From NCBI GenBank assembly GCA_963813815.1, contig CAWFAD010000009.1:6851-70850 (forward strand): a stretch of 64,000 nucleotides of DNA, read 5' to 3'. The position numbers were made by a program, and so were the translations under genes. Numbering within the stretch: the stretch's first letter is position 1; the number at the start of each line of letters is the position of its first letter. Positions 3,737 through 62,821 of the stretch are shown piece by piece. The stretch comes from an uncultured bacterium. Its GTDB lineage: Bacteria > Krumholzibacteriota > Krumholzibacteriia > Krumholzibacteriales > Krumholzibacteriaceae. The notes below the pieces were generated by a model. The model had not been told where the DNA came from, did no database searches, and saw only the letters and a list, made by a program, of their open reading frames with translations.

Positions 3737-3816
3737 TGGCGGGGCCGACGAGATTCGAACTCGCGACCTCCTGCGTGACAGGCAGGCGTTCTAACCAAAC
3801 TGAACTACGACCCCGC
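3737..3816 (-). tRNA. tRNA-Asp: tRNA-Asp (anticodon GTC), CCA encoded
   Basis: The reverse complement reads GCGGGGTCGTAGTTCAGTTTGGTTAGAACGCCTGCCTGTCACGCAGGAGGTCGCGAGTTCGAATCTCGTCGGCCCCGCCA; cloverleaf with anticodon loop CTGTCAC and T-loop GGTTCGAATC. Confidence 0.9.
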
Positions 3817-42519: not shown

Positions 42520-43758
42520 CTACGGTTGCCGGTATACCCGCCAGAGGAGCGCCGCGTTTTCGTCGCCGTCCGTAAAGAGACGAATGGCGTTCTCTCCGAC
42601 CTTCACGAGCCCGTCGCGCAGCCGCACCGTCCGCGGGGCGAAGCCGGCCGAGTCATACGGAGCGCGCCGGTACTCGAACGCGAGCTCCCCGTTGATCCAC
42701 GCCGCGGCCGTGTCGACGACGGCCGGAAGGGGCCACTCGAAGGGCGGCGGCGCGACGTCGAGATAGTACGAATACACGACCGTCAGAAGCGACGGCGGAC
42801 TGACGAAGGTCGCGTTGAGCTCGAAGCTCGTGACGGTTGCCGGCCCCACGAGAACCGGCCCGAAGAGAACCTCGGGAACGGGCGCCAGAATCGGGAAGAG
42901 CCCGAAATGCGCGCTCACGTAGTTCTGAACGACGCCGTCGCGCTCGACGAGGGTGACGAGCAGCGGATTGGCGGTCGTCACCTCCCAGACGTCCTCGCGG
43001 GCGGCGACCATGACCTTGTACACTCCCGCCGCGAGCCCCCCGAAACGGTACCGGCCGAGCGAGTCCGTCCGCGAGAGAAGCATGACCGTACCGGTCGAGA
43101 GGGGCTGCTCGATGGCGACCGTGATGCCCGGGATGCCCGGCTCCTGCACGCCGTCGCAGCGATCGAACTCGCCGTCTCGATCGGCGTCGAGATACACGAT
43201 CCCGTAGATCGTACCCTCCCCCTCGGCGGGCCCGACGTCGATCCGGTATCCGATGGCGAACGACCGCGCCGTGACCGTGTGGAACTTCATCGCGACCGGA
43301 GCCGTGCGCTCCTCGGGCGAGAAGAGATCGTCATCGCCGAGCGCGTCGCTGAAATCGTAGAACGGAAATCCGTCGGGCGAGCTTCCGTCGGGCCGGACGA
43401 CCGCGATGTCCGCCGGCGCGACGCTCGTGATGACGAAACGAATCGGCGCCGGAATGACGACGAGGCTCCTGTTCACGAGCTCGACGTCGAACGAAACGAT
43501 CCCCGTCTCCTCGTCGAACGCGAGGTCCTTCGCCCAGATTTCGATGCGCCCGGGCGTCAGCTCGGCGTTCGACACCGAACCGAGGAGAAAATCGCCCGGC
43601 GTCTCGGGATCGATCGCGCCGGTTCCGGAGAGGTCGCCCACGATCTCGTCGTAGAGGATCGACGACTCCTGATCGCATGAGAGCGTAAAGACCAGCGTCG
43701 CCGAAAGCAGCAGGAGAACGATGAGCGAGGCGATGGAGAAACGATTGTGACGCGCCAT
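42520..43758 (-). CDS. Lipoprotein with SdrD-B-like / Cna-B-type (carboxypeptidase-regulatory-like) Ca-binding domain
   Basis: GGAGGT RBS; lipobox LVFTLSC; GIVYLDADRDGEFDRCDGVQEPGIPGITVAI...GRYRFGGLAAGVYKVMV. Confidence 0.55.
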   Translation of the reverse strand: MARHNRFSIASLIVLLLLSATLVFTLSCDQESSILYDEIVGDLSGTGAIDPETPGDFLLGSVSNAELTPGRIEIWAKDLAFDEETGIVSFDVELVNRSLVVIPAPIRFVITSVAPADIAVVRPDGSSPDGFPFYDFSDALGDDDLFSPEERTAPVAMKFHTVTARSFAIGYRIDVGPAEGEGTIYGIVYLDADRDGEFDRCDGVQEPGIPGITVAIEQPLSTGTVMLLSRTDSLGRYRFGGLAAGVYKVMVAAREDVWEVTTANPLLVTLVERDGVVQNYVSAHFGLFPILAPVPEVLFGPVLVGPATVTSFELNATFVSPPSLLTVVYSYYLDVAPPPFEWPLPAVVDTAAAWINGELAFEYRRAPYDSAGFAPRTVRLRDGLVKVGENAIRLFTDGDENAALLWRVYRQP

Positions 43759-46102: not shown

Positions 46103-46507
46103 TCACCGTCGCTTCCACTGATATCGTTTCAAATCGATCCCGCCGTCGGCGTCGAACCTCACGCCTTCGATCTCGAGTCTCACGCGCTGCTCGTCCTCTC
46201 CGTCGGGATCAATCGAACCGAGGCTGATGCGCCCCCTCGCGTTTACGACGCGGTGCCACGGCACGTCCGATCCTGCCGGCAGGGCGTGCAGCGCATACCC
46301 CACGCGCCGGGCGTGCCCGGGGATGCCCGCGAGCTCGGCGATCTGCCCGTACGTCGCCACGCGCCCGCGCGGTATGCGGCGGACGAGCGAGTAAACGTCT
46401 TCATAGCTGCTGCTCATAATTTGTTCGCGCGCCTGGCGCCAGTATGGGGAAGCGGCGGCTCGGCCATCAAGGGCAATCTGGCATCCGTCGAAAGTCGGCT
46501 TGCGCAA
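46103..46507 (-). CDS. Alkyltransferase-like (ATL) protein: MGMT/Ogt DNA-binding domain with Trp replacing the active-site Cys (PWHRV)
   Basis: YGQIAELAG...PWHRVVNARG; the same PCHRV-to-PWHRV substitution as E. coli YbaZ / S. pombe Atl1. Confidence 0.7.
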   Translation of the reverse strand: MRKPTFDGCQIALDGRAAASPYWRQAREQIMSSSYEDVYSLVRRIPRGRVATYGQIAELAGIPGHARRVGYALHALPAGSDVPWHRVVNARGRISLGSIDPDGEDEQRVRLEIEGVRFDADGGIDLKRYQWKRR

Positions 46508-46614
46508 CCCGCCGCAACTTATTATTATTCGCCGAGTCTACGAGAACTCGGGCCGCGGGTTTCCGGGCCCGGTTCTGTTTTTTTATGGTCTTCCGAGCGG
46601 CGGTTCGTGCCAGT

Positions 46615-48528
46615 ATGACGTCGGTCAAACACATACGCAACCTCGCGATCATCGCGCATATCGATCACGGCAAGACGACGCTCATCGACTCCATCTTTCG
46701 CGCGACCCGCACGTTCCGCGACAACGAGCAGGTCGCCGAGCGCCTCATGGACAACAACGACCTCGAGCGCGAGCGCGGCATCACGATCCGGGCCAAGCAC
46801 TGCACGGTCAACTGGAACGGATACCTCATCAACATCATCGACACGCCGGGGCACGCCGATTTCTCGGGCGAGGTCGAGCGGGTGCTCTCGATGGTCGACG
46901 CGGTTCTCTTGCTCGTCGACGCCAACGAGGGGCCGATGCCGCAGACCCGGTACGTGCTCATGCGCTCGCTGCGGCTCGGACTCCGACCCATCGTCATCGT
47001 CAACAAGGTCGATCGCCCGCACGCGCGCCCCGATCACACGCTGAACAAAACGTTCGACCTCTTCCTCGACCTCGGCGCGAGCGACGAGCAGGCGCACTTC
47101 CCCGTTCTCTACGGCTCGGGGCTCGACGGCTGGCTCGTGCGGGACCTCGAGAAGGACGCGCACGAAGGCATGGACGCTCTCTTCGAAACGATCGTCGAGC
47201 ACGTGAAGCCCCCGAAGGTCGACCGGCATGGCCCCTTTCTCATGCAGGTGAGCACGCTCGCCTGGAGCGACTACATAGGCCAGATCGGCTGCGGCCGCGT
47301 GCTGCGCGGCACGCTCGCGAAGGGCGGCGAGTTCACGCGGTTCGTGACGCGTTGGAAGAACGCCGCCGATCAGGACGCCGGCTGGGACGTGACGGGCGCG
47401 GCCAAGGAAAAGAGCGTGCAGCTCTGGGTGACCCGCGGCCTGCAGCGCGTCGAAGTGGACTCCATCAGCGCGGGCGATATCGTCTGGCTCGCCGGGCCGC
47501 GCGAGATCGGCATCGGAGACACCTTCTCGACCATCGAAGACCCCGCGGCGGCTCTCAAGCCCCTCGAGATCGAGGAGCCGACGGTGTCGATGTTCTTTCT
47601 CGTCAACACGGGGCCCTTCTCGGGAAACGACGGCACGGCCATCACGCTGCGACAGCTCAAGGAGCGCCTCCAGCGGGAGCTGCGCACCAACGTGGCGCTC
47701 CGCATGGAGGATCTCGGACGATCCGACGGCGTAAAGGTGCTCGGCCGGGGCGAGCTGCACCTCGCCATTCTCATCGAGGAGATGCGGCGCGAGGGGCTCG
47801 AGATCTGCGTCTCCCGCCCCGAGGTCATCACGCACCGCGACGCGGACGGCAACCTTCTCGAGCCGATCGAGCAGCTCATCATCGACGTCCCCGGCGAGCA
47901 TCAGGGGATCATCATCGAGAAGCTCGCGCGCCGCAAGGCGGAGCTTCGAACCGTCGAGAACTCGGGCGCCGCGGTCGTGCGGATCGAGTTCGAGATACCG
48001 ACCCGCGGGCTCATCGGATACCGGTCCGAGTTTCTGACGGACACCCGCGGCCTCGGAATCATGTCCTCCCGCTTCCTCGCGTACGGGCCCTGGCGGGGCG
48101 AGATCGCCTCGCGCAACCGCGGCTCGCTCGTGAGCATCGCCACGGGATCGGCGACGGGGTACTCGATCGAAGCGCTCCAGGAGCGCTCGGTGATCTTCGT
48201 GCAGCCGGCCGAAAAGGTCTACACCGGGCAGGTCGTGGGCGAGAACTCGCGGGGCGACGATATGGAGTGCAATCCGACGAAGCAAAAGCACCTCACGAAC
48301 CACCGCTCCTCCACGAAGGACATCGCGGTCGCGATCAACGTGCCGCGCTCGATGTCGCTCGAGCAGGCGCTCGGTTGGATCGCCGCCGATGAGCTCGTGG
48401 AAGTCACGCCGAAGGCGATTCGGATGCGCAAGGCGATACTCGACGCCCTGCAGAGAAAACGCTCGCAGAAGACGCAGAACGCCTCCGCGAGGGAGATCGG
48501 CGCGCCGCCGGTTCAGCCGGCCGCCTGA
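46615..48528 (+). CDS. typA: Translational GTPase TypA/BipA
   Basis: G1 [10 protein letters not shown]3 DTPGHADF, G4 NKVD; EF-G-like domains; 637 aa. Confidence 0.9.
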
Positions 48529-48540
48529 TCCAACGACCCT

Positions 48541-50896
48541 CTACAGCCTGAAGAAATACTGCATTTTGAAAAACAGGTGCCACTCGGTCGGCTCGAAGCC
48601 TTGATGGGGATTCCCGGGTTCGGGGCCGAAGCGCGCGAAATCGAAATAGTTCGATCCGCCGCCGACGTAGAAAACGCTGAACGGGTTGATCTGGTACGTG
48701 AGCAGCGGCTCGACGTCGAGATCGCCCGTGAAATCGTCGTACTGAACGACGAACCGAAGAAACAGCTCGCGATTGAACTGATAGTTGATCCGCGTTCTCA
48801 GTATATAGCCGTCGAACACCTCTTCGCCCGTGTCCTTGCGGGAGAGCTCTGAATAGGTGAGGATCGGCTCTACCACGAGCCGCTGAGCGAGCTTGATCGT
48901 GGCCCAGGCATCGACGTGGGAGCCCTCTCCCAGCGCGGGAGGGCTTTCCGTGCGGGCTATCCTGTCTCCCAGGCCCAGCCAGAATCCGCACTGAAGATTG
49001 TCGCTGAAGGCGGTTCTCATCTCCGTGTAGAACAGCCGTATATCGTCGAAAAAGACTTCCCGGAAGCGCTCGGCGTAGAAATCGTACCCCACCATCACGC
49101 TGGTTTGCCGCTTGAACACCACCTCCACCCAGTTTTCCACCGACTGGGCCTTGTAGACGCTGAACGCGTTCCATCTCCGGCTGTACTCGTTCGTCGGGAT
49201 GATCTCGTCGAGCCACCGGTTGTCCAGGTAGAACACGTACGAGTTGCTCCATTCGACGCGGCGGTCGCTGTTGCGGAACACGAACCCGTTGTCCGCGCGA
49301 AAGGTCGGGCTCGAATCCCAGAAATCGAGGCTCGACCGCCAGCGCCGCGCGTCGCGTTCGAGGCCCACGTACGCTCCGTACCCCGTGTACGATTCGCCGT
49401 CGAGCGCGACGGTGTAATCCCCGCGGTCGAAGGTGGCGTCTCCGGCGTCCTCGACGAGCGCGGGATTGTCGGGCTCGCGCGTGATGCTCAGAAGCCCCTG
49501 TGTCTTCAGCGCGTAGTTCTGCTTGAAACGTACCAAGCCGTCGAGTCCCGCGACGGTTCCCGAGCCGCCGTCGTCGTACCCTCGGCTCGTCGCGACCGCG
49601 CCGAGATAGCTATCGTCCTTGAACGACCTGCGGAAACGCACGATGCCGCACGTGCTCTTGCCCGCGTCCGCCACGAGGCTGTATTCCTCAAAGGGGAGAA
49701 TGAGGGGCGTATGCTCGTCCCTCGCCGCCAGAGCGACGAATCCCGTCTTGCTCGTCCTTCCCGTGACCTTGGCCGCGAGCGACGGATCGTTGATGGTTCG
49801 CGTGTACACCGCGTTCCACCAGGTTCGGAAGAGATCGCTCCCCTCCTGAAAGAACGGCCTCCGCTCCGGAAAGAAAAGGGCGAAGGTCGTGTTCACGTCA
49901 ATCTGGGCGACGTCGGATTCGACCTGGCTGAAATCGGGATTGAGAGCGAGCTCGGCCCCGACGCTCGAGCTGATGCCGTAGCGGATGCCGAGAGACGGAT
50001 CGACGTCGAAATCGCGATTGTCGAATCCCGAGTCGGGATCCTCGCCGTCGCGAAGCGCTCCCGATTGCGAGCCGACGATCGTGGGAAGGAACTCGAACGA
50101 GCTTCCGGGCCGGACTCCGCTGATGCCGCTCAGCGTTCCCAGCTGGCAGAGAATGCAGGGGTTGTCGCGGAGCACCGCGGCCCACGAGTAGCTCCTCCTG
50201 CTGTCGCGCGGGTGATTGCGCCAGAAGGTGATGCGCCAGCTCTGATCTTCGCGGTCCGGGAATCTGAGGCTCTTGAACGGAATGGCGATCTCCACCTGAT
50301 AGCCGTCGGGCGTAATCCGCCCGGCGGAATCGAACACGACGTCGAATCCCAGGTCTTCATACCCCTTTCCTGATGGCCTGGCCGCCGGCTCCGTACTCGA
50401 CGTCCGAGCCCTCGTCCTCTTCCGAAAGCGTCCACCGCTTGTCCCCCTGGATGCCGAGCGGGTTGACGAACAGCTCGTACGCCCAGGCGGTGTTGTCGTA
50501 CGTGTCGAGGATGATGCCGACGTAGTCGTCGTTGAATATTTCGTCGCGGGCCCGCAACGTCGCCCGAATCGCCGAAGGATCGTCATGGGCGAAAAAGGCG
50601 ATATACAAGCGGCTCCGGTCGTAGGTCACGAGAACCTCGGTGTCGGCCTGGGGCCGCACCTGATCTCCGGGGGAGATTTCGGCGAAATTGCCCGCGCGGG
50701 CGGCGTTCTTCCATCCGTCGTCGTCGAGGAGCCCGTCGATGCGGATAGCGCCATCGATCGGCGCGACGCGAAGCGCCGGCCGCACGTTCGGGCTGAACGA
50801 AGCGGCCTCCTCGCCCGCGACCGCGACGGAGGATAAAACTCCAAGCGCCGCGCAAAACGCAAGAATACTTCTCAAAGGACAACGCCTCATCTGCAT
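48541..50896 (-). CDS. DUF5916 / CBM9-like-domain outer-membrane beta-barrel-type protein (C-terminal Phe); frameshift in a C4/G4 run at ~50362
   Basis: The 189-aa ORF (50357-50926: signal peptide + CBM9-like domain ...DDYVGIILDTYDNTAWAYELFVNPLG) and the 681-aa ORF (...SAGRITPDGYQVEIAIPFKSLRF...YFFRL*) are one gene; removing 1 nt rejoins them. Confidence 0.5.
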
Positions 50897-51089
50897 ATAA
50901 ATAGAAATGCGGATAGATCCTGGCACCGTCCCCAGTCTGGCCGATTCGCCGGAAGCGTGTCAATAGTTTTAGGAGCGCGGCTCGCGAAAGCGCATTTGAC
51001 ACATGTGTCAACATTTGTTAACGTAGTCGCCAGGCGATAGCTCCAACGCACAGCTTCTCCACTGCATCCGACCGGCAGAGGTCTCGCCC

Positions 51090-53697
51090 ATGGACTCTCT
51101 CGTCGGCAAAATCGTCTCGCACTACAGAATCATCGAGAGAATCGGCGCCGGCGGCATGGGCGTCGTGTACAAGGCCGAGGACACGAAGCTCGGCCGCACC
51201 GTCGCCCTCAAGTTTTTGCCCCCCGAGATGACCCGCGACCGCAAGGCCAAGGAGCGCTTCGTGGCCGAGGCGCGGGCGGCCTCCGCGATAGAGCATTCCA
51301 ACATCTGCACGATATTCGAGGTCGACGAGATCGAGGACGACCGGATATTCATCTCGATGGCCTATTACCAGGGCAAGACGCTGAGAGAGCGCATCGCCGA
51401 GGGGCCGCTCGGGCTCGCGGAAGCGCTCGACGTCGCCTCGCAGACCGCCCACGGGCTCGCCAAGGCCCACGCCCACGGGATCGTGCACAGGGACATCAAA
51501 CCGGGCAACATTTTCCTCACGGATGACGGCGCGGTGAAGATCGTCGACTTCGGGCTCGCCAAGCTCGCCGGGCAGGCGAGGCTCACGACCTCGGGGAAAA
51601 CGATGGGCACCGTCTCGTACATGTCCCCCGAGCAGGCGCGGGGCGAGGAGACGGGCCCCCGGACGGACGTCTGGGCCTTGGGAGTCGTGCTCTACGAAAT
51701 GGTGACGGGCGAGCTGCCGTTTCGGGGCGACTACGACGTCGCGGTCATCTACTCGATCTTGAACGAGACGCCCCCGGCGATGAGCGCCGTCCGCCCCGGC
51801 ATACCGGAGGAGCTCGAGAAGATCGTCGAGAAGGCGCTCGCGCGCGACGAGGCCGGGCGCTACGAGGACGCGGGCGCGCTCCATTCGGATCTCGCCGCGC
51901 TCAAACAGCAGCTCGATTTCAGCACGTTCACGGGCGCGCACGAGTGGAATTTCAAAGGCGGGAAAAGGAGGCGGATAATGGCTCTCGTGGGCGCGGCGGT
52001 CGCCGTCGCGGCCCTCGCCGTCGTCTGGCGGACCGCGGGCGAAAGGCGAGGCCCCGCGCCCGGGCTGCCCGGTCAGGCCCGCAAGGTCACGAGCGGCGAC
52101 GCATGGCAGGGCGATCCCGCCCTCTCGCCGGACGGAAGCAGAATCGCGTACTCCTCGGACGAATCAGGCAACAAAGACATCTACATCACGAACGCGAGCG
52201 GAGAGAGCAACCTGAGGCTCACGAACGACCCCGCTCCCGATTATTACCCGGCGTGGTTTCCCGACGGAGAGGCGATCGTCTTCGTCTCGGAGCGGAGCGG
52301 CATCCCCTCGATCTGGAAAATGAGCTCGCTCGGTGGCGGCGCCACCTTGCTCGTCGAGAACGCCATCGATCCCGCGATATCGCCCGATGGCGCGCGGATC
52401 GCGTTCACGACGCTCTTGCCGGGAGGGGATCAGTTCATCGCCGTCGCTTCGCTCGCCGATGCCGGAAAGGTGACGCTTCTCACGGGGCCGTCGGACGGGC
52501 TGTGGGACCACCGAAAGCCGGCGTGGTCTCCCGACGGAAGAACGATCTGCTACGCCAGCGCGGCAGGACCTCTGGACCGTATCCGCTTCGGGCGGTCCGG
52601 CCATGCGTCTGACGAGAGAGGGGGAGAACGACACGAGCCCCGCGTGGTCGAGCGACGGCAAGCGCGTGTACTTCTCCTCCGAGCGCGAAGGGACGCTCGC
52701 CCTTTGGCGCATCGACGTCAGGGGGGCCGCGCTCACGAGGCTCACGCAGGGACCGGGGTACGAGTACGACCCGAGCGTCAGCGGGGACGGCTCGCGAATC
52801 GCCTACGCGACGCGGAGAGAGCCGGGGGCGCTGTACCTCAGGGATATGAGGGCGAAGACGGACACGAAGCTCGCCGGGATACGGGGCGACTGTCTCGCCG
52901 CCATCGCGCCGGACGGGAGCAAAATCGTGTTCGCGTCGGATCGCGGAGGCGTGATGTTCGATCTCTGGATGCAGCCGCTCGAAGGCGGACTCCCCTCGGG
53001 GCAGCCGCAGCGCCTCACCGAGGACTCGGCGCACGCCTCGTGCCCGATGTTCTCGCCCGACGGCAAGTGGATCGCGTACTACCGGCTTCTCGGCGAGCAG
53101 CGCGACGTCTATACGATTTCGGCCTCGGGCGGCCAGCCGATCAGGTTCACCGACGATCCCGCGTCCGACGTCCAGCCGGCGTGGTCTCCGGACGGCTCCA
53201 AGATCGCTTTCGCCTCGGAGCGCGGCGGCCGCTTCGACATCTGGATCGCTCCGGTGGCCGAGGGACGACCCACCGGCCCGCCGCTGCGCCTCACGAGCGC
53301 TCCCGCGGACGCCATCGCTCCCGTCTGGTCGCCCGATGGAACGCGCATCGCGTACGTCGGCGACACCGAGAGCGGCCCCGACGTCTGGATCGTGCCGGCG
53401 GACGGCAAGGCGCCGGGGAAAAGAATCACATCGGGGGCGAACGTGGAGACGGTTCGGTGGGACCCCCTCGCCGGGGCGCTCCTCGCGAGCGGAAGATGGG
53501 GCGAGGACGAGCTGAGCATTCGCCGGGTCTCGCCCGAAGGAGGGGCGGTTTCGCCGATCGATCCGCCCATCGTTCTCGGCCCCGCGCCGACGACCGCGTT
53601 ATTCGACGTCACGCTCGACGGAGGTCTCGTGCTCTTTCCTCGCGAGAACAAGCGGGGAAACATTTGGGCGCACGAGGCGAAGAAGGGAACGTTCTGA
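51090..53697 (+). CDS. Ser/Thr protein kinase - TM - TolB-like (PD40/WD40 beta-propeller) fusion; frameshift at ~52563-52572
   Basis: Hanks kinase motifs GAGGMGVVYKA, HRDIKPGN, DFGLA, SPEQ; TM IMALVGAAVAVAALAVVW; 10+ PD40 repeats (SPDGSRIAY, WSPDGSKIAF...). Continues in ORF 52603-53697 after a 1-nt shift. Confidence 0.8.
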
Positions 53698-53720
53698 CTC
53701 TGACGAAAAGGAGGGACGAC

Positions 53721-54146
53721 ATGGTAGCGCGAAAACCGGCGCCCCGGGCTCTGGCCGCGAGGCGCGAGACGCGGAAGGCGCTCTTGGAGGCGCTCGCCTC
53801 CATCCGCGCGGCGAAGAGGGCCATCGTCAAGACGGGAGCGATGAGGACGACCGTCTACCCCGCGGTATTCCCGCCGCAGACGCCGACGAGCGTTTGCAAG
53901 ACGATCACCACGGATTCCATCGTCCTGAACCCGCCCTACGTGCCGTTCACCAAGTGCAGGGCCTTCTATCCTCCGAGGGTTCCGTTCAAAATATGCGGCA
54001 TTCCGCCGCGTGGGATCGATGTGACGAGGGAAGATTTCAGGAAGGGGCTCGAGGCGATCGAGCTGTGGATACGGTACGTGCAGAAGGTCTTCGACACGGC
54101 CGCTTCGAAGAGACCGGCGCTGCCCAAACCGAAAGCCCGGCGGTAA
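53721..54146 (+). CDS. Small (141 aa) Pro/Cys-repeat protein: candidate RiPP precursor or rSAM substrate (three PPxxPxxxC repeats)
   Basis: Strong GGAGGG RBS; helical N-terminal region; core PPQTPTSVC / PPYVPFTKC / PPRVPFKIC (53871-54020); 15 nt upstream of the rSAM/SPASM gene. Confidence 0.55.
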   Translation: MVARKPAPRALAARRETRKALLEALASIRAAKRAIVKTGAMRTTVYPAVFPPQTPTSVCKTITTDSIVLNPPYVPFTKCRAFYPPRVPFKICGIPPRGIDVTREDFRKGLEAIELWIRYVQKVFDTAASKRPALPKPKARR

Positions 54147-54161: not shown

Positions 54162-55385
54162 ATGTCCCCCCTCGAGCGTATCGAGGCGCTCACCCTCATC
54201 CTCACGTCGCGCTGCAACATGCGCTGCGCCTACTGCTACCAGAGCGCGAAACGGCCGGCGAGCGCGTCGTGGAGGACGATCGGCGCCGCGATCGACCTCG
54301 CGATGGACGGCGGGCGCGGGGAGATCGACATCGGGTTCTGCGGGGGCGAGCCGCTTCTCGAGTTTCCCCTCATGCGACGCGCGGTCGCGCGCGCCGAGGG
54401 GAAGCGGCCGGGCGGACGGGGCGCGACGTACTACATCAGCACGAACGGCACGCTCCTCACTGAGGAGATCGCCGCCTTTCTCGAAGAGCATCGCTTCGAG
54501 ACGCAGATCAGCTTCGACGGCGTCGCGGCCGCTCAGGACCTTCGAGGACGCGGCACCTTCCGGACTCTCGACCGGCTGCTCGCGCGGTTGCGAATAAGGC
54601 ACGCCGGGTTCTACGAGAGCAACGTCTCGATCGCCCTCACCGTGACCCCGCGCAACCTCGCGCAGCTCGCCGAGTCGGTCTCCTACTTTCTCGACATGGG
54701 CGCGTCGAGAATCGTGATCGCGCCGGCCATCGCCTCGGACGCCGAGTGGAGCGACGATCTCATGGGCGGGCTCGACGCGCAGCTCGCCTCGGCGTTCGAG
54801 AGAAGCCTCGCGTACTACGAGGAAACGGGAGAGATACCGGTTCAAATGTTTCGCGGCGGGGACGCGCCCTCGAGCGCGCCGAGAGGGCGGCCACTCTGCG
54901 GCGCCGCTCGCGCGGCGGGCATCACGGTCGACGTCGACGGCGAGGTCTACGGATGCTCCATGTTCGCTCGCTCCTACCTCGACGTCGAATCGCCGCTCCT
55001 TCGCGCGTGCGTGGAGGCGATGCGCCTCGGGAGGATCGACGATCCCGGTCTCTCCCGCCGCCTCGCCTCCCACCCCGCGGCGGTGCGGCGGGCGGGGATA
55101 TTCCACCGCAAGGACCGAAAGCGCTCGGCGCACGCGAGGTGCGCCGAGTGCCGCTATCTCGATCGCTGCTTCGTCTGCCCCGCGTGCATCGCCTTCGCGC
55201 CCGGGAACGGCGACCCCGACAGGATCTCGGACTTCTGCTGCGCCTTTAATCAAGCGGCGCTGAAATATCAGGACCGCTTCCCGCGCGAGGCGGCGGCCGG
55301 CGACGCGCTCCTCGCGCCCCCCGGCGCCGCGGCCGAGATGGAGCGCTGGAGGATTCTCGCCGGCGGAGCGCCGCGCCCCGCATAG
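54162..55385 (+). CDS. Radical SAM enzyme with C-terminal SPASM domain (anSME / peptide-maturase-like)
   Basis: CNMRCAYC (CxxxCxxC) cluster; GGEPLL SAM-binding motif; C-terminal Cys cluster CAECRYLDRCFVCPAC. Confidence 0.85.
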   Translation: MSPLERIEALTLILTSRCNMRCAYCYQSAKRPASASWRTIGAAIDLAMDGGRGEIDIGFCGGEPLLEFPLMRRAVARAEGKRPGGRGATYYISTNGTLLTEEIAAFLEEHRFETQISFDGVAAAQDLRGRGTFRTLDRLLARLRIRHAGFYESNVSIALTVTPRNLAQLAESVSYFLDMGASRIVIAPAIASDAEWSDDLMGGLDAQLASAFERSLAYYEETGEIPVQMFRGGDAPSSAPRGRPLCGAARAAGITVDVDGEVYGCSMFARSYLDVESPLLRACVEAMRLGRIDDPGLSRRLASHPAAVRRAGIFHRKDRKRSAHARCAECRYLDRCFVCPACIAFAPGNGDPDRISDFCCAFNQAALKYQDRFPREAAAGDALLAPPGAAAEMERWRILAGGAPRPA

Positions 55386-55495: not shown

Positions 55496-57794
55496 TTGAA
55501 ACGACATGGTCCTCACGGCTCAATCGTCGCGGCCGCCGCGGCCGCGTTGCTGCTCGTCTCGTTCGCCTCGGCGCCGGGACGCGCGGGCGAGGTCTCCTCG
55601 CTCGCCATCGAGAACGGCGTCATCCGCTGCTCGATCGAGCTCGAGCGAGGCGCGCTTCGATCCGAGCGCATCGAGCTTCTGCCGGGAGAGTCTCGGGGGC
55701 GAGGCGCGGGCGCGCTTCCCGCGATCGAGCTCGACGCGGATTTCGCGATCGACGTCATGTACACGGACTGGTCGGCGCCGGGCAAGATCGACAACGCCGA
55801 CAACCCCGTCCTCCTCTCGAAATCGAGCTTCACGGTCCTCTCGAGCGAGACGCGCGAAGAGGGGGGCGCCAAGGAGCTCACGCTCCTCTGCCGCGGAGCG
55901 GATCATCCGATCGAGCTTCGTATCACTTACCGCCTCGAGCCCGAGGCCTTCTACGTAAAGCGCTGCATCGCCGTGCGCGACACGACGTCCGGCCGCCATT
56001 TCTTGAGGCGGCTCTGGCCGAGGAGCGGCGAGGTCCGCGGAATCGCCTCGATCGTGAAGCCGGGCGGCTTCGGCCAGCCCGTCGCGGCGCTTCATTCCAA
56101 GGGGCGGGGCCTTCTTCGGCGTCGAGTACCCGGCCGCCGAGAACCATATCGAAGCCGCGGCAGGCGGGAGATACACCCTCCGCTGCGGGCAGGAGCACGG
56201 CGCGATCATCGGCCGGGACTGGCTCGCGAGCGACTGGGTCGTCGCGGGCCTCTCGCCCGACGGGCACGTGAAGCGATGGTTCTTCGAGTACCTCGACCGC
56301 GTGCGCGTCGCGCCGCTTCGCCCCTACGCCCTCTACAACACGTGGTACGACCTCCGCTCCCCCGAGTACCCGAAATGGTCCGCCGATCGCGTCATGAGCG
56401 AGGCGACGTGCCTCGCGATGGCCCGCGTTCTCCGCGAGCAGATGGAGCGGCACGGCATCCGTCTCGACGCCTTCGTGCTCGACGACGGCTGGGACGTCTA
56501 CGAGAGCGATTGGGTCATTCGAAAGAAGCAGTGGCCGGCGGGCTTCAAGCCGCTCTCCGACGAGCTCGCGAAGTCAGGCACGAGCCTCGGCGTCTGGTTC
56601 GGGCCGACGGGAGGCTACTGTTCCACGAGAGCGCCTCTCGTGGATGAAAGCGCACGGCTACGAGACCGTGGGGGATATGCTCTGCGTCGCGGGCGGGAAA
56701 TACGGCGGCGCTCCTTCGCCGCCGCGTCGAGCGATCTCGTCGAGCGCGACGGCGTCGGATATTTCAAATGGGATGGAATTCAGTTCTCGTGCAGCGAGCC
56801 GGGCCACGGACATCCGACGGACGTCTACTCCCGCAGGGCCGTCATGGAGTCCGTGGCCGCCATGTGCCGCGCCGTGCGCGAGAGGCGGCCGGACATTTTT
56901 CTCAATATCTCGTCGGGCACGTGGCTCAGCCCGTGGTGGGTGCGCTACGCGAACACGATCTGGATGCAGGGGATGGACTACGGCTTCGCCGACGTGCCGT
57001 CCATGAGCCGGCGCGACGGCTCCATCACGTACCGCGACTTCGTGCTCTACGACGACTTCCGCGTGCAGGACCGGTGGTTTCCCATCGCGAACCTCATGAC
57101 CCACGGCATCATCAAGGGAAAGGATTTCTCGGTCGGCGTCGAGAGCGAGCCGCTCGACAAGTTCACCGACGACGTGCTCCTCTACTTCGCGCGAGGCGTC
57201 GCCGATGTACGAGCTCTACATCTCCCCCGACATCCTGAGCGAGGGAGAATGGGCCTCGATCTCGAGGTCGATGGCGTGGGCGCGCGACCGTTTCCCGATC
57301 CTCATGAGCACGAGATGGTGGGCGGGAATCCCATGAAGGGGGAGCCGTACGCGTACGTCCACTTCAAGGGCTCGCGAGGAATCGTCGCCGCGCGAAACCC
57401 CGTCATGCGGCCCGCGGCCATCGAGGTCGGGCTCGAGACCGCGCACGGCCTCGACGCCGGGGCCTCCTCCCTCGTGCTCGAGCGCGTCTATCCGACGCGC
57501 TGGATCTCGCCGAGGCTCCACCGGGCGGGAGAGCGGATCGACATCGCGCTCGACGGATTCGAAACGGCCGTCTACGAAATCTATCCGCTGGGCGAGGCGA
57601 CGGAGCCGCTCGTCGCGGGGGTCGTCTTCGACGTCGTCTCGGAAACTGAAACGCGGCGCGTCATACGCTATCGCGACGCCTCGGCCAAGGCCACCGTGCT
57701 CAATCCGGCGTCCGTCGTCTCGGCGACCCACGAGGAAAGCCCGCGGCGGTCAAGCGAATCCCCTTCGCCCGCGACAGGGCGATCGATCTCGTGA
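55496..57794 (+). CDS. Secreted GH-D-clan alpha-galactosidase-like glycoside hydrolase (GH27/GH36-like), disrupted by at least 4 frameshifts (possible pseudogene or error-dense region)
   Basis: TTG start with AAGGAG RBS and signal peptide; motifs AFVLDDGWD, GVWFGP, YFKWDG, NISSGTWLSPWW. Reading frame switches at ~56105 (GGGGCGGGG), ~56600-56650, ~56770 and ~57790; a C-terminal extension is possibly present to ~58250. Confidence 0.45.
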
Positions 57795-58257
57795 GCGGCG
57801 TCTCTCTCGCGCCCGATAAGGCGGACGGATCGAAGGCGGCGGTGCGCTGCGAGGTATCGCCGGATGCGGCGGGCGCGACGCTCGCGATCCTCCTCTCCCC
57901 CGCCGAGAGCTGCACGGCGAAGGAGAAGCCCGCGCTCGCGGTCGAGCTCGACGGCGCCGCGATCGAGGCCGGCACCGAGCCGCAGGAGAGGGGCTCGCAG
58001 TGGTGGACGCTCCCGATACCGACCGGACGCCACGAGGCGCTCCTGCGCGTGAAGCCCGGAGCGGGGGACGGCGAATGGAGAGGCTCGATGCAGGTCTGGC
58101 TCGTCGCGATGGAGAAGCGCGCGGGGCGCGAGATCGTCCTCGAGCTCGCGAATCCGCCGCGGGCGAGACCGCTCCCGCCCCGGCCGTGGGAGCCCGGAGA
58201 AACGCGCCGGAATATTCCGCTCGGAGAGGCGCGAACTTCCGGCAAAGGAGAGCCCGC

Positions 58258-59000: not shown

Positions 59001-59227
59001 GAGCGTAGCTTCGAGCGCCGGGCGCGCTCGGGATCGCGCCCGAGCGGTCTCAGGCCCCTTTCTCCCGCTCCTTGAGCCGCCGGAACATCTCTCTTATGTC
59101 GAGCTGAGCCGCGGATCGCCACGTAGACGGTGACGGTCGAGTACCACACGAGAACGGCGATCGTGAGGAGCCCCCAGAAGGGATGGTCTTTCAGCATTTC
59201 AACGAGCATCATGAGCGCTTCCCCCGC

Positions 59228-60803
59228 TCAGGCCCGCTTCGCCGCGGGCTTCAGGAGCGATCCGACGACCATCGCCACGGCGACCGCGGCGTAGGTCCCG
59301 ATGTTGACGAAATTGTCGCCGATATGGTATCTCGCCCAGCCCATCGTCTGCGTCAAGGACCCGGCCGTCCTCGCATGACCTCGCCGCCCGGCCTCGTCGA
59401 GAAGCGGCACCGTCGACCTGCACGAAGATATTCAAGCGCAGCGACAGCACCGGCAGCGCCGCGCCGATGACGATCGCCGCGATCGCGCCCCAGCTGTTCG
59501 CCCGCTTCCAGTAGCAGCAGGTGATGAGCAGCACCGACATGCTCGCGAGATAGATCGTGCCCGTCGTCTGGCAGTACTCCCAGAGGTTTCCCTCGAGCTT
59601 GTACCAGAGCCCCCAGAAGAGGAGAAAGACGCCGATTATGGCGATGATGCACCGGTTCCAGAGGATGCCCTTCTTCTCCGACCAGGGTTTCCTCCTGCGG
59701 AGCGGCGCGAGGATATCGTTGTAGATGACGCTCCCCCACGTGAGCATGTAGGAGGAGTCGGTGCTCATGTCGGCCGCGAGCATCGCCGCGACGAGGAGCC
59801 CCATCATGCCGGCGGGAAGAATCTGGCTCAGAAGATACGGCATGGCGAAAAGAGAGCCGTCCCTCTCGCCGAACTGGAGGCCGATGCGCGCGAGCACGTC
59901 GGGAGCGACCATGGCGAGAGCGGCGATGCCCCAGATCGCCGGGATCACCCAGCGCGCCACGAAGAAGAAGGCCGTTCCCGTGTAGACCCGCCGGCCCGTC
60001 GCGCTGTCCTTCGCCGCGAGGAGCCGCGCGATGATCGTCTGCCACGTGAGGACGGCCGCCGTGTTCGTGAGAATGTTCGAGAGGACAAACGGCCACCCGA
60101 GCCCCGGAGCCACGAACGGGTTGAAGCCCCCCGCGCCGTAGCTCGCGCCGACGGTGGCCGTGAGCCTGCTCCACCCCACGGCGCCGAGAATGAGGAACGT
60201 CACGACGAGGAGCCCCGCGCTCATCACGACGAACTGGAGAAAGTCCGTCACGAGCACGGAGAGCATGCCGCCGAGAATCGTGTACACCATGACGGCGAGA
60301 AGGAGGACGGTCATGGCGAGCTCGAGATACTCGAGGTTCATGCCGGTCGCGACCACGAGAAACTGCCCGCCGACCCGGAGAAAGACCCCCATGTTGAGAA
60401 GCCCGCCGAGAACGATCACGACGCCCGCGAGCCAGCGGACGAAGGGGCCGAACCGCTGCTCGAAGAGCTCCGGGATCGTCATGACGTTCGAGTCGCGGAG
60501 CGGCTTCACGCAGAATCCCGTGTATCCCACGAGGAACATTGCCGCGCACTGGCAGAGCCCCGGGATCGTCCCGGCGAAGCCGCGGGTGTATCCGGCCTGC
60601 GCCGTGTACATGCAGGTCACGATGCCGAACTCGGTCGCGGCCAGGGAGGCGATGCCGAGGTAGACGTTCATCTCGCGGCCGGCCACGATGAAGTGCTCCA
60701 CCTTGACCACGTACTTGCGGACCATGACGCCCGCGACCATCGTGGCGAGGAGGTAGAGCCCGACGATGCCGCCGTCGATGAGCATGTTGAAGTCGCTGTT
60801 CAT
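59228..60803 (-). CDS. Sodium:solute symporter family (SSF) transporter; frameshift near 59410-59420
   Basis: 13-TM SSF-like sequence MNSDFNMLIDGGIVGLYLLATMVAG...; the C-terminal TM is encoded in ORF 59228-59410 in another frame. Confidence 0.7.
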
Positions 60804-60835
60804 GGAACCCGCCGCGGCGCAGGAGCGGCCCGAAT

Positions 60836-61688
60836 CACCCGTTCTTGCGCTCCGGATAAAACTCGACCTTCTCGTCGAGCATGCGTAGGTGCACCGTATC
60901 GCGTCCGCGGTCCCGACGAGCTTGAGCTCGCCCCTCCCGATCCGCGTTCTCTTGAGAAGGCCCTCTCTCAGCAGCCTTTCCTGCAGCAGCGTCGTCCTTC
61001 TCGTGGAGTAGATCCTCTCGGGATACACGTATGAGCTCACGACGATGGTCTCCCCTTGGTAGCTCACGACCTTCGCCGGAAGGGGCTTCTCGGTGTAGAG
61101 CGGCACGGACAGCCTATCCCTGATGAGGTGCTCGATATGGTGGAAGAAGGTGAAGGGAAAGGCCACGTCGTAGAACAGGACCTTCCCGTTGAGCGTTTTG
61201 AGCTTGTCGAAGGGGCTTCCTTCGCCGCATGGATAGACGCACCTCTCGTGCCCTTCGACGATCCAGGCGCTCTTCTCTCCGAAGGCGAGAATGGGATGGA
61301 CCGGGTTCAGACTTCTCATCACGCCGTTTCTTCTTCTAAAGAGCTCCGATATGAGACCCATCATCGACGGCGTCTTCCTCACGTCGAACGTCGGTTGCGT
61401 CATCAGATACTCCAAGGAGGAGGAGCCGTAGGGCAAGGAGACCATGAGAAGGTTGCCGCTCGGCCCGACCGCCTCGAGCAGGCACTCGATAATGTCCTGC
61501 GCGGCGCCCTTGAAGCCGTTGTTGCTCTTGAACGAGCTGTGCACCATCACCGTATCCCCGGGAGCCACTCCGACCTTTCGAAGCGCCGCCATGAACGCGC
61601 CTTTGTCGTAGCCGAAGAAGCGATCGGCGATCATTTTGTCCAGCTTGTTATAGCGCCTCTTTATCGCGAGCTTCCTCTTGACGCTCAT
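60836..61688 (-). CDS. AAC(3)-family aminoglycoside N3-acetyltransferase-like protein; frameshift at ~60890 so the ORF reads through into the SSF gene
   Basis: GDTVMVHSSFKS...LLEAVGPSGNLLMV...; natural C-terminus ...DTVHLRMLDEKVEFYPERKNG* found in the -1 frame; lower GC than the bulk of the window. Confidence 0.55.
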
Positions 61689-61806
61689 GTTGCGCCATAT
61701 CCAGCTCTGGGCGATGACTTTCTTCAGCAACTCGCACCCCTTTGGCTCTAGCTCGAAACCGCTTTCCTCGAATCTTCTCTGAATATCGTTCTCGCCGCGT
61801 TCTCGC

Positions 61807-62821
61807 TCAGTATCCGTATGCAAGCGCATCGTCGGATTTCACGCCCGCTCGCTCGAGGGCGTACAGCAACCGCATGCCCATCGCGATCTCGCTCGCGTAG
61901 AGCGCGTCGGACCCGAAGAGCACCCTCTCAGGCTCCACATTGGTCAGAAGCGCCACAATGGCGCTCTCTTGAAGCCCCGATATGTCGATGTGCACGTTCC
62001 CATAGGCGCGGAGCAGCTTCTTCAAAGCGGGGACGACCGCGTCGTCGATTTCCGATGGAGTCATTCCATAGGCGCCTCCATGGGCGATTATCACCGGCGA
62101 GGACGACTGGAAATCGATGTCCGCGAGATTCGACATTTCCGCGAAATGCGCGTTCGCGTCGCCGAGGATCTCGCTTCTGCCGCCATGAATGACGACGGGA
62201 AGGCCGAGGCCGCCGCTCGCCGCGACGATGCATTCGACCCGTTCCTTCCCCTCGGGAGCGGCCAGATCGATTCTCGGTGACGTTCGGATGGATCTTGACC
62301 GCGACGATGCCGTAGTCCTCGACCTGGCCCTTTAAATACGAGGCGACATCTTCGTTTCTCACCGTGTTGGGAACGGCGCCGGCGAGCCGAAAGCGATCGT
62401 CGCCCTTGAACATCCGGAACGACGCGTCCATCTGCTCATCCATCGTTCCCGTCGCCGGGGCCACCGGCAGGAGCAGCGCCTTGTCTATGCCCAGAATATC
62501 GAAATAGTCCCCGAACACCTTGGGGCCCGTGTGGGAGTAGATCCGGCGAAGCATCATCGGCAGTATCCGCCGGTACTCCTTCGCCGCGTAGTTCGCGTCC
62601 TTCTCCTCATGCCCCTGCTTGAAATCGGCCAAGGAAGGGCTTCGATACGCCGCCGTGCCGAGCCCGAACAACCCCTTGGCCTCCGGGCGCTCCTCGTAGC
62701 TATGCACCCCGAAGATGACTTCCGTCGGATGCACGTGCGCATCGTACGTCTTGAAGGCCTTGTGGACCTCCTTGAGCTTCCCGATGTACCTGTCGATGTC
62801 TTTGTTCCAGGGAGGAGTCAT
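61807..62821 (-). CDS. Amidohydrolase-2-family TIM-barrel metal-dependent hydrolase; frameshift between ~62140 and 62280
   Basis: YDAHVHP at the N-terminus (ORF 61928-62821) and LFGSDALY at the C-terminus (ORF 61807-62136) in different frames. Confidence 0.55.

Follow-up and report, generated by a model that had tools for sequence, protein, structure and literature searches.

The stretch of DNA analysed here (hereafter the window; 64,000 nucleotides of contig CAWFAD010000009.1, assembly GCA_963813815.1) comes from an uncultured bacterium of the Krumholzibacteriaceae and carries on its forward strand three consecutive genes: a receptor Ser/Thr kinase gene (51090..53697), a gene for a 141-residue protein (53721..54146, 426 nt with its stop codon) and a gene for a 407-residue radical S-adenosylmethionine (rSAM)/SPASM enzyme (54162..55385), with gaps of 23 nt and 15 nt between them. 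The small gene in the middle is the subject of this analysis and encodes a putative substrate or precursor of the rSAM enzyme; its product is MVARKPAPRALAARRETRKALLEALASIRAAKRAIVKTGAMRTTVYPAVFPPQTPTSVCKTITTDSIVLNPPYVPFTKCRAFYPPRVPFKICGIPPRGIDVTREDFRKGLEAIELWIRYVQKVFDTAASKRPALPKPKARR. It has a Shine-Dalgarno site, AAGGAGGG (53708..53715, forward strand), which is visible in the sequence itself and lies 5 nt ahead of the ATG at 53721, and it has homologues as well as positional orthologues in all cassettes of this kind. The kinase combines a Hanks domain, one transmembrane segment and PD40/TolB-like beta-propellers (Pfam Pkinase, 3.9e-50; PD40, 1.3e-57).

The central part of the small protein is a Pro/Cys repeat of the form PP-x2-P-x3-C, which the original prediction, made from the sequence alone, had described as occurring three times, and which is indeed found at residues 51-59, 71-79 and 84-92. 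With the residue that precedes each motif included, the units read F-PPQTPTSVC (residues 50-59, nt 53868..53897; motif at nt 53871-53897), N-PPYVPFTKC (residues 70-79, nt 53928..53957; motif at nt 53931-53957) and Y-PPRVPFKIC (residues 83-92, nt 53967..53996; motif at nt 53970-53996), all on the forward strand. Their three cysteines are the sole cysteines of the 141-residue protein, as had also been noted, and the other statements of that prediction about the sequence itself hold as well. Among 200,000 composition-preserving shuffles of the protein, one copy of PP..P...C appeared in 0.45% and three copies in none, while a six-frame translation of the whole window yields a single copy at one other place. 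The third repeat is followed by GIPPRGID, which reaches nt 54020 and includes a trailing half-repeat, GIPPR (residues 93-97, nt 53997..54011, forward strand), represented in orthologues by GIPPV, GNPPK, DFPPK, HLPPV, TIPPE or DPPK. Judged by this pattern, GIPPR resembles the beginning of a fourth, Cys-less unit and not a sulfatase CxPxR motif. In the alignment, the protein ends in a basic tail rich in Pro, Lys and Arg (residues 130-141, nt 54108..54143, forward strand). The small protein has no match in Pfam, NCBIfam or PADLOC, none being better than E = 0.1 in Pfam and NCBIfam. A Tat or Sec signal peptide was ruled out, the N-terminus being amphipathic and charged and lacking a hydrophobic core, as were heme-regulatory CP motifs, since Pro rarely comes after the repeat Cys.

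A single open reading frame (ORF) of 1018 residues covers 51090..54146, from the kinase start through the small gene, and spurious long ORFs are frequent in high-GC DNA. Both facts would fit a reading in which the small ORF is a non-coding artefact, namely the tail of a high-GC ORF that shares the frame of the kinase N-terminus, an outcome against which the original prediction had warned. The details of the kinase gene leave this reading with next to no probability. When the intact 867-residue kinase from an orthologous locus (L089; L numbers designate loci throughout) was compared with the window by tblastn, residues 1-489 matched in one frame and residues 490-867 in the next; the switch lies at 52559-52561, where an extra g is present, and the kinase terminates at the TGA at 53695-53697. 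Without the 1-nt frameshift that the kinase gene carries near 52560, the 1018-residue ORF would therefore not exist. The GC content at third codon positions (GC3) is 0.83 for the small ORF in its own frame, against 0.86-0.88 in neighbouring genes, whereas the same frame extended upstream (52603-53697) has a GC3 of 0.57 and a non-coding pattern. Moreover, the small ORF has a ribosome-binding site and ATG of its own, and at many orthologous loci the kinase and the small protein are encoded by separate genes. The small ORF is a genuine gene located directly upstream of the rSAM/SPASM gene, as originally proposed, and not an out-of-frame by-product of the kinase. Frame disruptions also affect other genes nearby: the melibiase-like gene at 55496-58240 switches frame near 56100-56130 and near 57732 relative to an intact 923-residue orthologue (L108:4259-7030), and further upstream the DUF5916 gene falls into two parts, 48541-50586 and 50357-50926. 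Since several neighbouring genes are frameshifted, these disruptions, including that of the kinase, look like assembly indel errors of the long-read type and not like pseudogenisation.

An AlphaFold2 (AF2) model of the small protein, built from a nine-sequence alignment, has a mean predicted local distance difference test (pLDDT) score of 68 and a predicted template modelling (pTM) score of 0.51. It contains an N-terminal amphipathic, leader-like helix that is conserved in the alignments (residues 8-37, nt 53742..53831, forward strand; block pLDDT 86-95) and a C-terminal helix that starts with a T-x-x-D N-cap and carries an I-E-x-W-x-x-Y motif (residues 103-129, nt 54027..54107, forward strand; block pLDDT 81-90), which agrees with the helical flanks originally proposed on either side of the Cys repeat core (block pLDDT about 81-95 for both). 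Short strands are predicted at residues 42-45 and 99-102, and the Pro/Cys core segments 48-63, 65-80 and 82-93 have pLDDT values below 50. According to this model, the protein may form a helical hairpin that displays a Pro/Cys loop of about 55 residues, flexible and probably disordered. A Foldseek comparison of the model with the PDB returned nothing significant, the best match being a prefoldin-like helix/beta/helix topology with E > 5.

Relatives of the small protein were collected both by sequence and by position. A word-indexed homology search with the protein itself returned the self match only, and one with a 13-sequence profile added one new sequence beyond those known, while an exhaustive search of 1.84 billion cluster representatives recovered P0122-P0127, six relatives whose E values lie between 2.9e-27 and 8.6e-5 (2.9e-27 to 1.4e-11 for P0122-P0126). 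Further small proteins were read from the gene directly upstream of each rSAM homologue. Within the close clade, defined as loci whose rSAM enzyme is at least 60% identical to that of the window, the original expectation that the repeat would be kept in orthologues with a changing copy number is borne out: three copies occur in the window protein, P0122, P0123/L107, P0124, L001b/L091 and L089/L090, two in P0125 and P0126, and one in L001a, L002/L003, L004, L103/L104 and L105/L106. One locus (L001) even has tandem small genes between the kinase and rSAM genes, one encoding 100 residues with one repeat (L001:4202-4504) and the other 143 residues with three repeats (L001:4554-4985). The 25 repeat instances from 11 close-clade proteins yield the consensus unit [YFH]-P-P-[RQH]-V-P-x-x-[IV]-C, in which PP and Cys are 100% conserved; among the 22 canonical units, an aromatic residue precedes PP (position -1) in 21 and the third Pro (position +4) is present in 19. 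After the last Cys, close-clade proteins continue with x-x-P-P, the start of a further, Cys-less unit. Close-clade precursors are 100-157 residues long. Between orthologues the small protein is about 50% identical versus 66% for the enzyme, and the ratio of nonsynonymous to synonymous substitution rates (dN/dS) of the small protein, 0.4-0.7 at about 50% amino-acid identity, indicates that it is fast-evolving yet constrained. The Pro/Cys repeat is conserved, and its copy number is variable.

In distant clades, where the rSAM enzyme is 35-55% identical to that of the window, the positional small proteins have 76-143 residues, bringing the distinct small proteins tabulated overall to 24, and their cores differ widely. 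L085/L094 have three 24-residue repeats ending in PPC; L088 has QVDHTCGxxPP twice plus EHIC; L086b has NPFPVPC ... NPPNIEC; L096 has a single GIPVC, L098 has GPARPYLC, and L006 has EPPMGERC. In L087 one helix is followed by QCPPGK and a Lys-rich tail, and in L099/L100 a long coiled coil is followed by PGPPPPPVLGDAC or LPLAGGEC at the C-terminus. Most of these proteins have at least one helix beside the Pro/Cys segment, and the sole constant of the cores across clades is the presence of at least one Cys within or next to a proline-containing, non-helical stretch. The best-preserved element is the helix after the core, T-x-x-D-[FIV]-x-x-[AG]-L-x-x-[IM]-E-x-W-x-x-[YL]; a hidden Markov model of the close clade gave sub-threshold matches to distant proteins (L088, L098, L087) in this C-terminal helix alone. 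All family loci examined have a small gene beside the maturase gene, a conserved recognition region and a variable Cys core. Such a combination, in which the enzyme is conserved, the recognition region semi-conserved and the Cys core hypervariable, is typical of the logic of precursors of RiPPs (peptides made on ribosomes and modified after translation).

The enzyme encoded downstream has the CX3CX2C motif of radical SAM proteins at residues 18-25 (Pfam Radical_SAM PF04055, 5e-13), and C18, C22 and C25 are invariant among 24 family members. The seven cysteines of a SPASM domain are equally invariant (C246-X13-G260-X4-C265, C327-X2-C330-X5-C336-X2-C339 and C360), so that the family has exactly ten invariant cysteines, three of the rSAM motif and seven of SPASM; the last CX2C has a spacing of X2 versus the canonical X3, and the Pfam SPASM model remains sub-threshold (16.9 versus 21.5 bits). 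Among NCBIfam models, the enzyme scores highest against PapB (NF047865, 135.6 bits; cutoff 340), followed by Nif11-rSAM (102), CcpM (89), QhpD (86.5) and HxsB (86), with lower values for the anaerobic sulfatase-maturating enzyme (anSME) model TIGR03942 (56.4; cutoff 349) and the SCIFF maturase model TIGR03974 (54.4; cutoff 425). The four leading models, PapB to QhpD, describe maturases that form Cys thioethers or act on Cys peptides. No equivalog cutoff is reached, which places the enzyme outside every curated family. It begins at the rSAM core and lacks an N-terminal RiPP recognition element (RRE). In a profile search of the PDB, CteB (5wgg) is the closest solved structure (4.3e-27), and the profile alignment starts at CteB residue 91. 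The AF2 model of the enzyme (pLDDT 80.9, pTM 0.81) can be superposed on two SPASM enzymes, CteB and anSME, in alignments of 380-390 columns, Foldseek placing CteB first (7e-15, TM-score 0.62-0.68), followed by anSME (2e-12, TM-score 0.64-0.67), then TigE, ChlB and SkfB. The enzyme class and the cysteine pattern are established by these data. The family is large, comprising at least 652 clusters at 90% identity with E <= 1e-10; among the 120 listed, identity to the window enzyme is 42-68% and nearly all are covered close to full length.

The cysteine pattern says more about the chemistry than the fold does. In anSME, four cysteines (C255, C261, C276 and C330) give auxiliary cluster I (Aux I) its complete ligation; in CteB the SPASM cysteines number seven, and the substrate Cys binds at a site of Aux I that is left open (PMC6231123). 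In PapB and related enzymes, ligation to Aux I has been probed with Sec-for-Cys substrates by EPR or EXAFS (PMC10177961). The Aux I loop of the window enzyme resembles that of CteB (C-G-...-G-x4-C), in contrast to anSME, which carries an extra Cys there (SSSCGMNGTCTC...C); the family thus has seven invariant SPASM cysteines instead of the eight needed for full Cys ligation in anSME, with one Aux I loop Cys where anSME has two. Because of this CteB-like seven-Cys pattern and the missing anSME cysteine, the family looks, by sequence, like a thioether synthase type that binds the substrate Cys at Aux I. The same observations weigh on the idea that the enzyme performs anSME-like chemistry, oxidising the repeat cysteines to C-alpha-formylglycine or otherwise dehydrogenating them without forming cross-links. 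Such an activity would agree with the similar length of the two enzymes, with their common lack of an RRE, with a model that superposes on anSME nearly as well as on CteB, with the automatic JGI annotation of many family members as 'sulfatase maturation enzyme AslB', and with a target Cys close to prolines. However, the anSME score lies far below its cutoff and well under that of PapB, the whole family lacks the cysteine with which anSME completes Aux I, and no sulfatase gene is linked in any family locus. The substrate motif C/S-x-P/A-x-R is likewise missing from all three repeats: in the window the segments starting at the three cysteines are CKTIT, CRAFY and CGIPPR, and those at the last Cys of orthologues are CGIPPV, CGNPPK, CDFPPK, CHLPPV and CTIPPE. 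The original prediction had pointed to a loose resemblance between CGIPPR and the CxPxR motif, which does not survive inspection, as Pro stands at +3/+4 and Arg at +5 where Pro +2 and Arg +4 are needed, the Arg is unconserved in orthologues, and the other two window cysteines have no such motif. On balance, anSME-like chemistry appears improbable.

The three genes form a cassette that opens with a PD40-containing kinase gene, continues with one or more small ORFs and closes with the rSAM gene, all in one orientation. Wherever the sequence of a family locus reaches far enough upstream, this order and orientation recur, and the rSAM enzymes of these loci range from about 73% to 35% identity with that of the window. 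When 108 fetched loci were compared by tblastn, a full-length kinase was found directly upstream in 22 loci, all of them family members. A broad contig scan with generic rSAM patterns (CNLRCxYCY, GGEPLLEFP), which sampled the taxonomic spread poorly, yielded no full-length upstream kinase at its generic rSAM loci except at L005 and L006, the family members among the matches listed; of the remaining loci of that scan, three had partial kinase-domain matches elsewhere in the locus and the others had no match. The cassettes stem from soil, sediment and freshwater metagenomes, including metagenome-assembled genomes labelled Acidobacteriota (L005), Eiseniibacteriota (L088) and Fibrobacteraceae (L006), and kinase divergence broadly tracks rSAM divergence (identity pairs of 68%/53% for L085, 51%/44% for L088, 43%/42% for L005 and 42%/35% for L006). 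The flanks of the cassette encode BipA, DUF5916, a melibiase-like protein and CutC in the window and, at other loci, ankyrin-repeat proteins, sigma-54 regulators, Omp85 and peptidase M64, among others. No constant protease, exporter or RRE/PqqD protein was found among the family loci; only the three cassette genes are conserved, and conserved they are as a unit. Accordingly, the original interpretation stands in regard to the real gene, its rSAM neighbour, the helical flanks and the repeat conservation and falls in regard to sulfatase chemistry, and it had missed the upstream receptor kinase as an obligate part of the module.

Two other roles suggested by database matches or gene content were set aside: the PADLOC matches (kinase as PD-T4-6, rSAM core as pVip) are generic domain matches and do not indicate a defence system, and a function of the kinase of class III/IV lanthipeptide type was ruled out by its Hanks domain, transmembrane segment and propeller and by the lack of lyase or cyclase domains.

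The tight linkage of all three genes raises the question of which partner the small protein serves. It might not be an rSAM substrate at all but a proline-rich adaptor, a regulator or a phosphorylation substrate of the kinase, with the rSAM enzyme acting on the kinase or on another target. The kinase is linked to the small gene as tightly as the rSAM enzyme is, the cassette lacks an RRE, a protease and an exporter, PPxxP segments are typical ligands in protein-protein interactions, and nearly all close-clade proteins have a Thr where the C-terminal helix begins. That Thr, however, sits at a helix N-cap (T-x-x-D/E) and is lost in several clades, and the otherwise unrelated cores share nothing except Cys beside prolines, which together with the variable repeat number is the signature of a substrate of a Cys-directed SPASM maturase. 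A role confined to the kinase therefore seems unlikely, and the two roles are not mutually exclusive.

The explanation preferred here, to which we assign a probability of roughly 0.6, is that the cassette produces an uncharacterised rSAM-modified peptide or protein that bears one Cys-centred cross-link per repeat, most likely a thioether, and that is tied genetically to kinase signalling. The 141-residue protein would be the substrate of the rSAM/SPASM enzyme encoded 15 nt downstream. Since the enzyme has no RRE domain, it would probably recognise the helical scaffold, chiefly the helix after the last Cys, while the proline-rich loop would be threaded through the active site, where the enzyme would act once per repeat on Cys. 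As in CteB and PapB, the Cys thiolate might occupy the open iron site of Aux I, and the 5'-deoxyadenosyl radical would take a hydrogen from a nearby residue to give a C-S thioether, thereby closing one small ring per repeat. The acceptor candidates best conserved in the unit are the prolines, Val/Ile and the aromatic residue. Because no dedicated protease or exporter is seen, the product would presumably stay a small cross-linked protein or a large peptide, and a leader, if removed, may be cut off by generic cellular proteases. Since the gene pair lies downstream in an operon whose first gene encodes a transmembrane kinase carrying PD40 propellers in the periplasm, the product of the modification would most likely belong to the pathway of this kinase, where it could act as a ligand, a substrate or a regulator, instead of being a classical antibiotic for export.

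Several observations weigh against this explanation. The link between the small protein and the enzyme is circumstantial, coming from adjacency and co-conservation, and it is by position and architecture that the distant small proteins are related to those of the close clade, their homology by sequence alone not being statistically significant. The open Aux I site is inferred from the missing Cys alone, and a non-Cys ligand as in PqqE may undo that step; nor does the fold search separate a CteB-like from an anSME-like enzyme (TM-score 0.62-0.68 versus 0.64-0.67). Likewise, the packing of the two helices in the small protein is deduced from an AF2 model with just nine sequences in its alignment. 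Among the 25 repeat instances, no Asp, Glu, Asn or Thr stands at a fixed offset from Cys, unlike in the substrates of PapB (CX3D) or NxxcB, and the lack of a conserved protease or exporter in the cassette makes a released peptide product doubtful.

The choice of acceptor also touches on whether sulfur takes part in the chemistry at all. The aromatic residue before PP in 21 of the 22 canonical repeats, together with the appearance of the cyclophane-forming maturases AmcB (48 bits) and YhhB (43 bits) among the weaker NCBIfam matches, could point to a triceptide-like cyclophane formed from [Y/F/H], or to an epimerisation or methylation, with Cys reserved for metal or disulfide binding. Such a non-sulfur modification has a slim chance of being correct: Asn replaces the aromatic residue in one of the window repeats, the aromatic residue is lost in distant clades (KPPC, LLPPC, QVDHTCG, GIPVC and others) where Cys is always present, and maturases of the thioether type score two to three times above the cyclophane-forming ones. 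Cys-centred cross-linking by the rSAM enzyme remains the better account of these patterns.

Comparison with known systems places the cassette beside several of them and inside none. PapB, the maturase of the ranthipeptide freyrasin, is the best-scoring curated family for the window enzyme (over residues 7-295), and its precursor PapA has a short repeated motif with one Cys each, in which PapB makes one thioether per repeat according to PMC9413430. The differences are a score of 135.6 bits that does not reach the membership cutoff of 340, the lack of the CX3D/E acceptor in the 25 window-type repeat instances, and a precursor of 100-157 residues with helices on both sides and an obligate receptor-kinase linkage. 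CteB, which matures the SCIFF precursor CteA (PDB 5wgg/5why), shares the seven-Cys SPASM pattern and the two-Cys Aux I loop with the window enzyme, whereas it has an N-terminal RRE of about 90 residues that the window enzyme lacks, and the latter stays at 54.4 of the 425 bits required. SCIFF precursors have about 45 residues with six cysteines. The anSME/AslB enzymes are RRE-less rSAM/SPASM proteins of similar size with a good fold match that modify Cys of a protein substrate, in contrast to the window family, which is without the additional Aux I Cys, the substrate motif and a linked sulfatase. QhpD installs several intramolecular Cys thioethers in the small protein QhpC, which stays uncut and has Asp/Glu acceptors and a cysteine tryptophylquinone (CTQ) cofactor. 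QhpD is the fourth-best NCBIfam match to the window enzyme, and no dedicated leader protease is seen here, as there; nevertheless, 86.5 bits lie below the cutoff of 453, Qhp dehydrogenase genes are missing, and a kinase linkage exists only in the window system. The precursors of the Nif11 and NHLP types also combine a long, conserved helical recognition region with a hypervariable Cys core, and Nif11-rSAM is the second-best enzyme match (102 bits), but the small protein has no similarity to those leaders and its core is mostly flanked by helices on both sides. By analogy, the system appears most like PapB/PapA, with a thioether per motif, and QhpD/QhpC, where the protein stays a protein, while the enzyme core appears most like CteB. 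The window system does not qualify for membership in the PapB, anSME or SCIFF/CteB families. No description of a kinase/small protein/rSAM cassette was found in the searchable literature, and there is no curated model for the enzyme clade or the small protein.

Some further features of the cassette surroundings were recorded. In the close lineage, some synteny extends beyond the core: a melibiase-like gene (about 920 residues) follows the rSAM gene both in the window and in L108 (rSAM 55% identical), and the window (46444-48528) and L001 both have BipA on the upstream side of the kinase. At L002 (1-1843) and L004 (1-1849), a second Ser/Thr kinase (kinase plus TPR, about 913 residues) and an unannotated ORF of 87-89 residues stand directly upstream of the cassette, and the genes downstream encode a protein of 334-338 residues without a Pfam domain, a sigma-54 response regulator and an FG-GAP/HAMP histidine kinase. 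A large ankyrin-repeat protein (about 616 residues) accompanies the cassette at two loci of different sub-clades, downstream in L001 (6173-8026, reverse strand) and upstream in L085 (1-678, reverse strand). Elsewhere in the window, an 875-residue ORF (59199-61829, reverse strand) joins an aminoglycoside 3-N-acetyltransferase-like domain (PF02522, 5.9e-42) to a sodium:solute symporter domain (PF00474, 2.8e-37) and could be an unusual fusion or, given the indel errors of the contig, a frameshift-joined pair. ARAGORN predicts an unusually long tRNA-Arg(ACG) of 93 nt (43148-43240, reverse strand), for which the Rfam tRNA model gives none at the gathering score; tRNA-Asp at 3737-3814 is the sole tRNA in the window common to both.

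The substrate type is unusual in itself: a protein of 76-157 residues that has helices on both sides in most clades and a variable Pro/Cys repeat core in the clade of the window. Data sets of rSAM enzymes compiled by their association with an RRE (PMC10288494) leave an RRE-less enzyme outside, and the family would therefore be missed by RRE-based mining. For enzymology, the system offers a case of RRE-free substrate recognition by a SPASM enzyme and of the question which carbon is joined to Cys in a proline-rich context. The invariant kinase linkage suggests a regulatory or signalling role and not that of an antibiotic, and it provides a handle on the signals of beta-propeller receptor kinases in Acidobacteriota and related phyla. 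A more specific extension, which we regard as a tentative possibility, is that the cassette constitutes a self-contained signalling module, in which an RRE-independent rSAM enzyme cross-links the Pro/Cys loop and the product serves as ligand, intracellular substrate or regulator of the co-encoded Hanks-type kinase. If this holds true, Ser/Thr-kinase signalling would for the first time be hard-wired to a peptide or protein modified by an rSAM enzyme, and a class of candidate ligands would be available for beta-propeller receptor kinases, about whose signals little is known.

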